A stretch of DNA of 64,000 nucleotides, taken from NCBI GenBank assembly GCA_048940925.1, contig JBHLOC010000002.1, positions 1 through 64,000 of the forward strand, written 5' to 3'. Of this stretch, positions 43,321-44,653 are shown one piece after another. How positions within the stretch are numbered: the first letter of the stretch is position 1; every line of letters starts with the position of its first letter. The DNA is from Promethearchaeota archaeon. Its GTDB lineage: Archaea; Asgardarchaeota; Lokiarchaeia; Sigyniarchaeales; SOKP01. The position numbers and the translations under genes are program-made. The notes beneath the pieces are model-generated. The model made no database searches. It saw only the letters and a program-made list of their open reading frames with translations, and was not told the DNA's origin.

Positions 43321-44653
43321 TTAGAAGTAAATGTTATCAAAAATTATTGTTTCCCTTCTATCTGGACCAATAGAGATCATAGCTATATCTACTTGTAACT
43401 CATCTCTGATGGCTTTAATATAAGTTTTCATAGTGTCAGGTAAAGCCTCATATCCTTTTTCTGCTATTTCTAACCATCTATCTCTACTCTTTTCATCCCA
43501 TCCCTCAAATGATCTATAAACTGGTTTGCATTCTTCTATAATCTCATGCTGAATAGGCCAACTTTCAAGTATTTCTCCGTCTAGCTCATATGCAGTACAC
43601 ATTTTTATAGGATTAATTCCTTGAAGGGCATCTAATAAGGTTATAATCACCTTATCAATCCCATTAATCATTATACCATATTTTATATTAAAGAGATCTA
43701 GCCACCCAACTCTGCGTGGTCTTCCTGTTACTGTCCCATATTCATGACCTTGTTCTCGAATTTTTGTAGCAACATCATTAAACAATTCAGTAGGGAATTT
43801 GCCTTCACCCACTCTAGAAGTATACGCTTTAACTATACCTAGTACTTTATTTATCTTTTTTGGCGGAATTCCTGTTCCAGCAGAAATTCCAAGAGCGTTG
43901 GCATTTGAAGACGTACCAAATGGGTAAAAACCATGATCTATACATAACAGATTACCTTGAGCACCTTCAAACACAATTTTTTTACCACTATCTATAGCTT
44001 TATTCAAGTAATATGCTGTATCGGTCACATATTGTTTAATTTGTTTACCATAAGACTTATATTCTTCATAAATAGAGTCTAAATCGACGTTCCAACTTGG
44101 ATCGTACACATGAATTAAATTCTTCTTTATGTTATACAATTTTTCTAATTTAGGTTTTAACACGTCAGGATTAATCAGATCATATATTCTTAATCCCCAA
44201 CGAGCTGCTTTATCAGAATAAGCTGGTCCAATTCCTCGTTTAGTTGTACCAGCTCTATATTCACCCTTCCATTTTTCTTCCAAACCATCTAAAGTGCGAT
44301 GAAATGGGAAAATCACATGTGCAGTAGAACTTAATTTCAAATTGATCTTTTTATTAAGCCTTTTTAAATTTTCAATTTCTTCAAGAAGAACTTTTGGATC
44401 TATCACACATCCATTCGCAATAACACATTCCTTTTCAAGGGGAGCACCGCTAGGAATTAGCTTGAATTTATATTTTATTCCATTTGCTTTTATCGTGTGA
44501 CCTGCATTATTACCCCCGTTGTATCTTACAACAATATCTGCTTTTTGGGCTAAGTAATCGACGAATTTACCTTTTCCTTCGTATGGGGTTAGTATGCGAT
44601 TTGCTTTGCTAAACTCCCCAACTTAAACCCACAACTGCAATACAATTACTCAT
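43321..44653 (-). CDS. purA: Adenylosuccinate synthetase split by a 31-nt insertion: join(44653..44614, 44582..43321), 433 aa
   Basis: Spliced N-terminus [43 protein letters not shown]; downstream [33 protein letters not shown]; the ORF track shows only the distal 361 aa. Confidence 0.93.
44583..44613 (-). other. Putative BHB/BHL-type mRNA intron in purA (31 nt)
   Basis: GGGG-AG|U-UUAG...CUAA-CCCC-AU|A; cuts after the 2nd nt of each 3-nt bulge give TGG GGA GAC GAA (WGDE). Confidence 0.8.

Follow-up and report, generated by a model that had tools for sequence, protein, structure and literature searches.

A 31-nucleotide insert in the P-loop of purA from a Promethearchaeota archaeon as a probable bulge-helix-bulge intron

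How can an active adenylosuccinate synthetase be made from a gene whose P-loop is broken by a stop codon and a shift of frame? The question is raised by purA in a stretch of 64,000 nucleotides (nt) from a Promethearchaeota archaeon (Asgardarchaeota; Lokiarchaeia; GenBank assembly GCA_048940925.1, contig JBHLOC010000002.1, positions 1 to 64,000; hereafter the window), where 31 nt on the minus strand separate the first 13 codons of the gene from the remainder. Our comparison of this locus with its counterparts in related genomes indicates that the insert is very probably a bulge-helix-bulge (BHB) intron of the HBh' type, relaxed on its 3' side, in the purA pre-mRNA. Coordinates of all features are collected in Table 1, and predicted cuts are written as ^ throughout.

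The interrupted purA gene and the reality of the insert

The gene opens with the ATG at 44653-44651 and runs for 13 codons plus a G, the last of these letters being AGT TGG GGA G. The insert follows at 44613..44583 (TTTAGCAAAGCAAATCGCATACTAACCCCAT), after which purA resumes as AC GAA GGA AAA GGT AAA. In the unspliced reading an in-frame TAG is met two codons past GGA and the 31 nt shift the frame, just as the initial annotation had described for the minus strand, and such an mRNA codes for a 14-residue peptide only. The frame of exon 2 is open from 44580 down to 43321 (419 codons, EGKGKF...) and matches the Pfam profile Adenylsucc_synt over profile positions 10-416 (E = 7.9e-155). Excision of 44613..44583 was predicted to give back the motif WGDEGKGK and an uninterrupted protein of 433 amino acids (aa), and translation bore this out: 13 codons, a rejoined GAC and the 419 codons of exon 2 make up the 433 aa, with the P-loop restored. 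The border G^...^AC is the sole one that gives back the Asp, which we take to be the catalytic residue with the role of Asp13 of E. coli AdSS. The predicted spliced junction reads ...UUGGGGAG^ACGAAGG... or, equally, ...GUUGGGGAG^ACGAAGGAAAAGG... Mechanical calling of open reading frames (ORFs) presents purA as a 361-aa fragment (43321-44406, minus strand) with an internal GTG start and without the P-loop.

The source genome is a metagenome-assembled genome of 4.8 Mb in 90 contigs, 100% complete and with 8.4% contamination, and an assembly of this kind could by its nature harbor an assembly or sequencing artefact at 44583-44613. The locus is present in 20 DNA runs from seven studies, no RNA run being listed for it, and contigs of four runs belonging to at least three other studies span the 31 nt with no gap (record 2 of X12 with 0 differences, record 9 of X15 with 17 scattered differences, and record 17 of X2/X3). 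The insert was also found, with diverged sequences, in 29 further independently assembled genomes. An artefact, against which the initial annotation had suggested a check of the raw reads, is excluded by these gapless contigs from other studies, and the other assemblies agree.

Two further ideas on the nature of the insert were dropped. A search of the genome with up to 6 mismatches allowed found no other copy of the insert, and as a single-copy sequence it does not behave as a mobile repeat. A group I or group II self-splicing intron was rejected, as the core of such introns takes up hundreds of nucleotides compared with the 30-32 nt seen here, and a search of Rfam returned no match for the 31-nt insert at E <= 1.

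Distribution of the insert and selection on purA

In a first survey, covering 40 relatives of the source genome, the insert was seen at the identical site in 10 genomes of the same genus, the rest having an unbroken WGDEGKGK. A pattern search over 54 genomes of the genus and 400 genomes of the phylum placed the purA insert exclusively in the source genome's own family, in four genera. We fetched purA across this whole family and read 121 genes (113 from the family and eight from the outgroup). An insert of 30, 31 or 32 nt stands at the identical position in 30 of the 113 family genes (18 in genus g1, nine in g22, two in g15 and one in g21), and uninterrupted WGDEGKGK is found in the other 83 and in the eight outgroup genes, that is, in 91 intronless genes. 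Exon 2 is full-length (419-420 codons) in 28 of the 30 carriers; one of the remaining two stops at a contig end and the other, G225, holds a second insert.

A few sequences outside the family also matched the pattern. Three purA-like P-loop sites have 21-29 extra bases between TGGGGNG and AYGARGG (G125, locus L052; G033:C1:3069912-3069952; G302:C44:6521-6569); in one of the three the number of extra bases is a multiple of three and may represent a protein insertion. By eye, the matches outside the family (these three and the short ones in G018, contig C35, and G069, contig C15) are without the BHB geometry or are 12-nt in-frame stretches. In one genome, G049, purA is present twice, full-length and intronless, on separate contigs (L068 and L082), either as a real duplicate or through bin contamination.

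The two coding parts of the gene were looked at separately. Between intron-bearing purA genes the ratio of nonsynonymous to synonymous substitution rates (dN/dS) is 0.07-0.14, which cannot be told apart from the 0.10-0.11 of intronless pairs. Exon 1, only 13-16 codons long, retains its ATG and codes for the peptide ...(I/L)A(V/I)xGLSWG in 30/30 carriers, while its codons vary synonymously (TTA/CTT/CTC/CTA for Leu, AGT/TCG/TCC for Ser, GGT/GGC/GGG for Gly); the reading frame of exon 1 is therefore the one ending in GGA G^. Judged by these substitution patterns, purA and its short exon 1 are under purifying selection. The same kind of comparison reveals constraint on the insert itself: in three pairs of genes the inserts are identical at 22/31, 23/31 and 24/30 positions (71-80%), compared with 39/113, 40/120 and 45/112 four-fold sites (33-40%), which is near saturation.

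These results bear on the idea that the insert is an inert scar and purA a pseudogene, or a gene expressed as an N-terminally truncated product from an internal start. Standard ORF calling does yield the 361-aa product from the internal GTG, and in G002 an ATG lies in frame within the insert. We nevertheless hold this idea to be very improbable, as the rate of change in the insert is far below that of four-fold sites, exon 1 shows the conservation of a coding sequence, exon 2 is intact in 28 of the 30 carriers with a dN/dS of 0.07-0.14, the internal start is not conserved, and a truncated product would be without the Trp-Gly-Asp of the P-loop, the catalytic Asp included. Moreover, this is the only purA: the Adenylsucc_synt profile has a single match genome-wide, so that the second intact copy that would have spoken for a pseudogene was not found in this genome. 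The substitution patterns thus side with the initial annotation, which had taken the gene to be functional.

The split codon offers a different kind of evidence. It would rejoin as GAC in 18 and as GAT in 12 of the 30 carriers, both coding for Asp. The inserts of 30 nt preserve the frame, yet they cannot be translated through because each has an in-frame TAA or TAG. A ribosome might still cross an uncut RNA by hopping over the insert, in the manner of phage T4 gene 60, or by shifting frame, and the stop two codons past GGA together with a hairpin at the gap is reminiscent of the gene 60 take-off site. Such recoding can be set aside with little hesitation because the DNA has no Asp codon at this place and offers no fitting landing codon: the codon arises only by joining G to AC or AT (30/30 genes), a GGA landing codon directly before GAY is not present downstream, and hopping from GGA on to the following GGA would remove Asp-Glu-Gly from a P-loop that is unbroken in the 91 intronless genes. 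In addition, insert lengths range over 30-32 nt, and shifting frame would not carry a ribosome past the stop.

The Gly codon immediately 5' of the insert (44615-44617), which supplies the first base of the bulge described below, is GGA in 30/30 carriers compared with 31/83 intronless family genes, a count in which the carriers are kin and represent 6-8 lineages rather than 30 trials. This bias could fit a need for A in the bulge or in recognition, or a preference of insertion site.

Structure of the junctions and the predicted splicing machinery

The initial annotation had proposed a central helix GGGG/CCCC, an intron helix UUAG/CUAA and the bulges AGU and AUA, all of which we found at the positions given (Table 1). 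In the first 10 sequences aligned, the pairing as set out holds in 93.8% of cells, compared with 30-47% when the partners are slid; the central helix (H) is paired at 100% and the intron helix (h') at 97.5%, and two pairs are changed on both sides. In the full set of 30 genes, H is paired throughout in 28, and as many have at least three of the four h' positions paired. The variants of h' among the carriers are UUAG/CUAA, AUAG/CUAU, UUAA/UUAA, UAAU/AUUA and UAAA/UUUA. The 5' bulge reads AG^N and the 3' bulge A(U/A/G)^A, and in the relatives the 3' end of the intron consists of CCCU or CUUU and two bases, followed by the cut. For the crenarchaeal cbf5 intron, which interrupts a catalytic Asp codon after the first letter, cleavage takes place between the second and third bulge residues (PMC2738675), and the cut rule that we applied to purA was taken from this source. 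When each bulge is cut past its second base, the cuts fall on the border G^...^AY that restores frame and Asp in 30/30 genes, so the coincidence of AG^U and AU^A with the frame-restoring junction, noticed in one genome, extends to all carriers.

The interiors of the introns, on the other hand, are of at least five types that cannot be aligned with each other and have one register in common. That of g1 reads UUAG...GCA..CGCAUACUAA and that of g22 is related to it; g15 has a 9-bp hairpin, with compensatory changes from G-C to A-U between its two members; g21 has a long A/U hairpin; and a further type of 32 nt is found in G041 and G004. When the region -12..+8 of the source genome is folded without constraints, exactly H, a 3-nt bulge and h' are obtained. 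In the corresponding unconstrained minimum-free-energy folds of 28 distinct sequences, H appears in its exact register in 18 and h' in 24. The outer helix is nearly absent in the source genome, leaving a relaxed HBh' form with a canonical H-B-h' arrangement on the 5' side, and the description of the motif as relaxed and BHL-like (bulge-helix-loop), with weak pairing between exons, was a fair one for this genome, where the 3' bulge has no solid outer helix. In the clade with a TCG Ser codon, an exon-exon helix of 5-6 bp (UUUCGU/ACGAAG) brings the motif close to the strict hBHBh'. That the structure goes beyond chance rests on comparison, namely on one site, one register and one geometry common to 30 genes whose intron interiors are of at least five unrelated kinds, and the covarying pairs at this one site indicate that orthologous insertions keep the helix-bulge geometry, a check that had been suggested together with the annotation.

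A spliceosomal-type intron was also considered, as the words GUUUAG and UACUAAC occur in the insert of the source genome. This candidate (GU...UACUAAC...AG) was rejected: the borders required here are UU...AU, and the two words, neither of which is kept outside the genus, are explained by the pairing of h', UACUAAC being CUAA and its neighbors. The word that resembles the yeast branch point, UACUAAC, is replaced in other genera by CGUAAC, CUUAAC, UUUUAC or AGUACU.

The history of the intron was followed on a gene tree of purA (FastTree, 119 genes), which is not a species tree. The intron state changes at least eight times on this tree, and at least six of the changes are forced by well-supported branches. 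The introns of g1 and g22 are alike (UUA[AG]..UGCA...GCA..UAACCCUAU), and because of this resemblance an intron that predates the split of g1 and g22, with several precise losses since, is likely. The g15, g21 and G041 types, being unrelated, suggest that introns at this site were replaced or inserted anew. The second insert of G225 (genus g21) also has 31 nt and lies 28 codons past the first, at L055:1625-1655, in the motif GGxNAGH^T. Its excision restores NAGH^TVVANGIKYK (NAGHTVVANGIKYK), and it has the same register, with H GGUC/GGCU and the bulges AU^U and AA^A.

We then asked which enzymes of the host could act on such a structure. The source genome codes for two EndA paralogues, the catalytic alpha subunit on contig C58 (region 74241-74465) and, on contig C18 (region 73532-73780), a non-catalytic one that is beta-like, as well as a single RtcB on contig C40 (E = 8.7e-167). 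The EndA of 198 aa keeps the Tyr/His/Lys triad and has as its best match, over the whole length, chain 3p1z_B of the A. pernix heterotetramer; in the EndA of 200 aa, Tyr is replaced by Phe and His by Thr, as expected of a structural beta subunit. The N-terminal loop region of the alpha protein aligns without gaps to A. pernix alpha and includes KPR, from which we infer the critical lysine of the specificity loop. Cleavage of relaxed HBh'/hBH/BHL motifs is confined to (alpha-beta)2 and epsilon2 EndA, Asgard EndA has the (alpha-beta)2 form with an L1 specificity loop that permits relaxed motifs, and BHB motifs are known in a few pre-mRNAs (PMC5829648). Calls of tRNA introns by ARAGORN were too noisy to define the tRNA-intron motif of the host.

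As to cleavage, ligation and the acting enzymes, we infer the following course. After transcription, the GGGG at the end of exon 1 would pair with the CCCC near the 3' end of the intron to form H, and the intron would close on itself through h' (UUAG/CUAA) and a small apical hairpin, so that AG^U bulges out of one strand and AU^A out of the other. A heterotetrameric EndA, built from the alpha protein and its beta-like partner, would cut past the second base of each bulge, and RtcB would ligate the exons. Their joining would make the GAC of the catalytic Asp and, with it, the P-loop GDEGKGK of the 433-aa adenylosuccinate synthetase.

The insert could instead be excised by a nuclease other than EndA or by a self-cleaving fold, the exons being joined by RtcB or another ligase. 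Splicing of this sort would resemble that of XBP1 by Ire1 or the hairpin-triggered "SOS splicing" of animals, and RtcB-dependent splicing systems for RNAs other than tRNA do exist (PMC12779559 and PMC12530127). The element is essentially a hairpin with short flanking pairings, which leaves some room for such a route. We consider it unlikely, though a little less so than recoding or a pseudogene, given that the conserved features match an EndA substrate exactly (a 4-bp helix, opposite 3-nt bulges and a register kept in 30/30 genes). Moreover, the cut sites lie outside hairpin loops, unlike those of Ire1, which cuts in 7-nt hairpin loops, and 30-32 nt is below the size of any known ribozyme intron, in line with the lack of an Rfam match.

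Several points weigh against an EndA-type intron in purA. The 30 carriers are kin, with perhaps 6-8 independent lineages among them, and the counts given above overstate independence. A wider fold of 68 nt is no more stable than shuffled sequences (z = -0.53), and because of this thermodynamics alone is not the evidence. The exon-exon helix is nearly absent in the source genome, which leaves the 3' cut site next to one helix only; a broad-specificity EndA is therefore needed, and the lysine assigned to its specificity loop is a putative one. The introns of G041 and G004 have, in the canonical register, a 5' bulge of 6 nt and not 3 nt. Finally, the motif alone is weakly predictive in AT-rich DNA: five genome-wide scans that combined BHB geometry with restoration of an ORF found no significant excess over mis-registered controls. 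These null statistics were obtained because the motif of 4+4 bp is too common in DNA of 28-30% GC and because gene junctions fake ORF fusions.

Other interrupted genes and comparison with known splicing systems

Ranking the scan hits by stem length lifted real introns to the top of the list, and stop-carrying inserts of 30-31 nt with the common cut register were recognized in at least seven other genes of the source genome (Table 1). The insert of the EF-2-like gene has a textbook H-B-h' arrangement, with H UCAG/CUGA, the bulges AU^U and AU^G and an h' of 9 bp, and its excision gives ...DSD^DEEQERGIT, colinear with an uninterrupted paralogue. Both this insert and that of aIF2-gamma lie inside the G domain. 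The methylmalonyl-CoA-mutase-like, Ras-like, phosphorylase-like, AIR-synthase-related and Elp3-like genes were taken from the top of the stem-length-ranked list. A further insert lies within the window, in a zinc-ribbon gene that starts with the ATG at 53165. Among 30 loci read at this site (its own included), 11 have an insert of 28-31 nt and 19 an intact MARCPECGG, and the inserts of the relatives have different hairpin sequences. In each intron verified in this genome, both bulges begin with A. In gyrB, the Pfam DNA_gyraseB domain itself is uninterrupted.

Table 1. Features of purA, of the predicted RNA motif and of similar inserts in other genes. Plain positions are those of the window; C and L designate contigs and extracted loci.
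Feature	Position	Strand	Remarks
purA exon 1	44614..44653	-	ATG + 12 codons + G (first letter of catalytic Asp codon)
Putative mini-intron, 31 nt	44583..44613	-	In-frame TAG, frame shift; DNA contigs; family comparison
purA exon 2	43321..44582	-	AC of Asp codon, 419 codons, stop; Pfam match
Predicted central helix H, 5' strand GGGG	44616..44619	-	From TGG-GGA codons; 4/4 positions pair in 28/30 genes
Predicted central helix H, 3' strand CCCC	44585..44588	-	CCCU or CUUU in relatives
Predicted 5' bulge A-G^U	44613..44615	-	Predicted cut after G44614
Predicted 3' bulge A-U^A	44582..44584	-	Predicted cut after U44583; A-(U/A/G)^A in 30/30 genes
Predicted intron helix h', 5' strand UUAG	44609..44612	-	Compensatory variants in relatives
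Predicted intron helix h', 3' strand CUAA	44589..44592	-	Within UACUAAC word
Predicted apical hairpin GC-AAAUC-GC in intron	44596..44604	-	95% paired, first 10 sequences
Zinc-ribbon gene insert	53183-53213	+	31 nt, stop-carrying; excision gives MARCPE^CGG; DNA contigs bridge site
EF-2-like gene insert	C32:27895-27924 (L141:1963-1992)	-	30 nt; GTP_EFTU match passes 1 stop
aIF2-gamma gene insert	C68:45858-45887 (L144:2070-2099)	-	30 nt; GTP_EFTU match passes 3 stops; excision gives GHVDHG^KTTL
Methylmalonyl-CoA-mutase-like gene insert	C71:54629-54659 (L253:1201-1231)		31 nt; Pfam positions 2-54 before, 58-182 after junction
Ras-like GTPase gene insert	C78:59767-59796 (L256:1201-1230)		30 nt; Pfam positions 1-58 before, 60-157 after junction
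Thymidine/AMP-phosphorylase-like gene insert	C64:13177-13206 (L254:1201-1230)		30 nt; partial Pfam colinearity
AIR-synthase-related gene insert	C30:66095-66124 (L255:1201-1230)		30 nt; partial Pfam colinearity
Elp3-like gene insert	C40:183124-183154 (L257:1201-1231)		31 nt; partial Pfam colinearity

On balance, we lean towards a wider view in which dozens of protein-coding genes in this Lokiarchaeia-type family, essential ones included, would have tRNA-type introns of 28-33 nt that need EndA and RtcB and turn over fast through repeated precise loss, re-gain and replacement. An essential purine-synthesis gene of an Asgard archaeon would then give an active enzyme only if 31 nt leave its mRNA, and the same would hold for translation factors and other genes. 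If this is true, introns in mRNAs occur regularly in a lineage near the origin of eukaryotes, the question is raised of how splicing stays ahead of translation without a nucleus, and the purA site becomes a tractable one for following how introns are gained, lost and replaced at a fixed position. A close prokaryotic relative of eukaryotes would, if introns of this kind occur lineage-wide, be a natural system in which mRNA splicing is set against coupled translation. There is also a practical side: gene callers would systematically truncate or split such Asgard genes, as with the 361-aa fragment of purA, and public annotations of these genomes likely contain intron-bearing genes in truncated or split form.

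In a full-text literature search, with subscription journals outside it, no account of BHB introns within protein-coding genes of Asgard archaea came up, and mRNA introns of the BHB type were confirmed for crenarchaeal cbf5 only. A 2026 preprint on Asgard tRNA introns brings in protein-coding genes only as neighbors for matching tRNA loci.

The cbf5 intron of Crenarchaeota (Desulfurococcales and Sulfolobales; Watanabe 2002; Yoshinari 2006; Yokobori 2009) is the nearest likeness to the insert of purA. Both are short inserts in a protein gene, with BHB or relaxed BHB borders and a host with a hetero-oligomeric EndA; both split the codon of a catalytic Asp after its first letter, have cuts predicted between the second and third bulge residues and show lineage-specific loss. 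They differ in the gene, in the host, which is an Asgard archaeon and not a member of TACK, and in the length, which is held tightly at 30-32 nt in purA. The purA site also differs in having at least five unrelated interiors within one family and at least eight gain or loss events on the gene tree, and purA is one of at least nine interrupted genes in its genome and not the sole one. Splicing of cbf5 has been confirmed by cDNA and by in vitro cleavage, whereas that of purA is deduced from DNA.

With the non-canonical introns of archaeal tRNAs (relaxed HBh'/hBH/BHL; PMC5829648), the purA insert would have in common the local geometry, the enzymes predicted to act on it and dependence on a broad-specificity EndA that has an L1 loop; it differs from them in that the substrate would be an mRNA without a tRNA body and the outcome the restoration of a reading frame. 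The RtcB-dependent splicing of eukaryotes, that is, the 26-nt XBP1/HAC1 intron cut by Ire1 and SOS splicing (PMC12779559), resembles it in a very short mRNA intron, the absence of a spliceosome, a change of frame and, probably, joining by RtcB. In those systems, however, the nuclease and the recognition element are different, and no sign of stress regulation was seen for purA. The purA intron would belong to the known kind of EndA-type introns in archaeal pre-mRNAs, the gene and the Asgard host being new.

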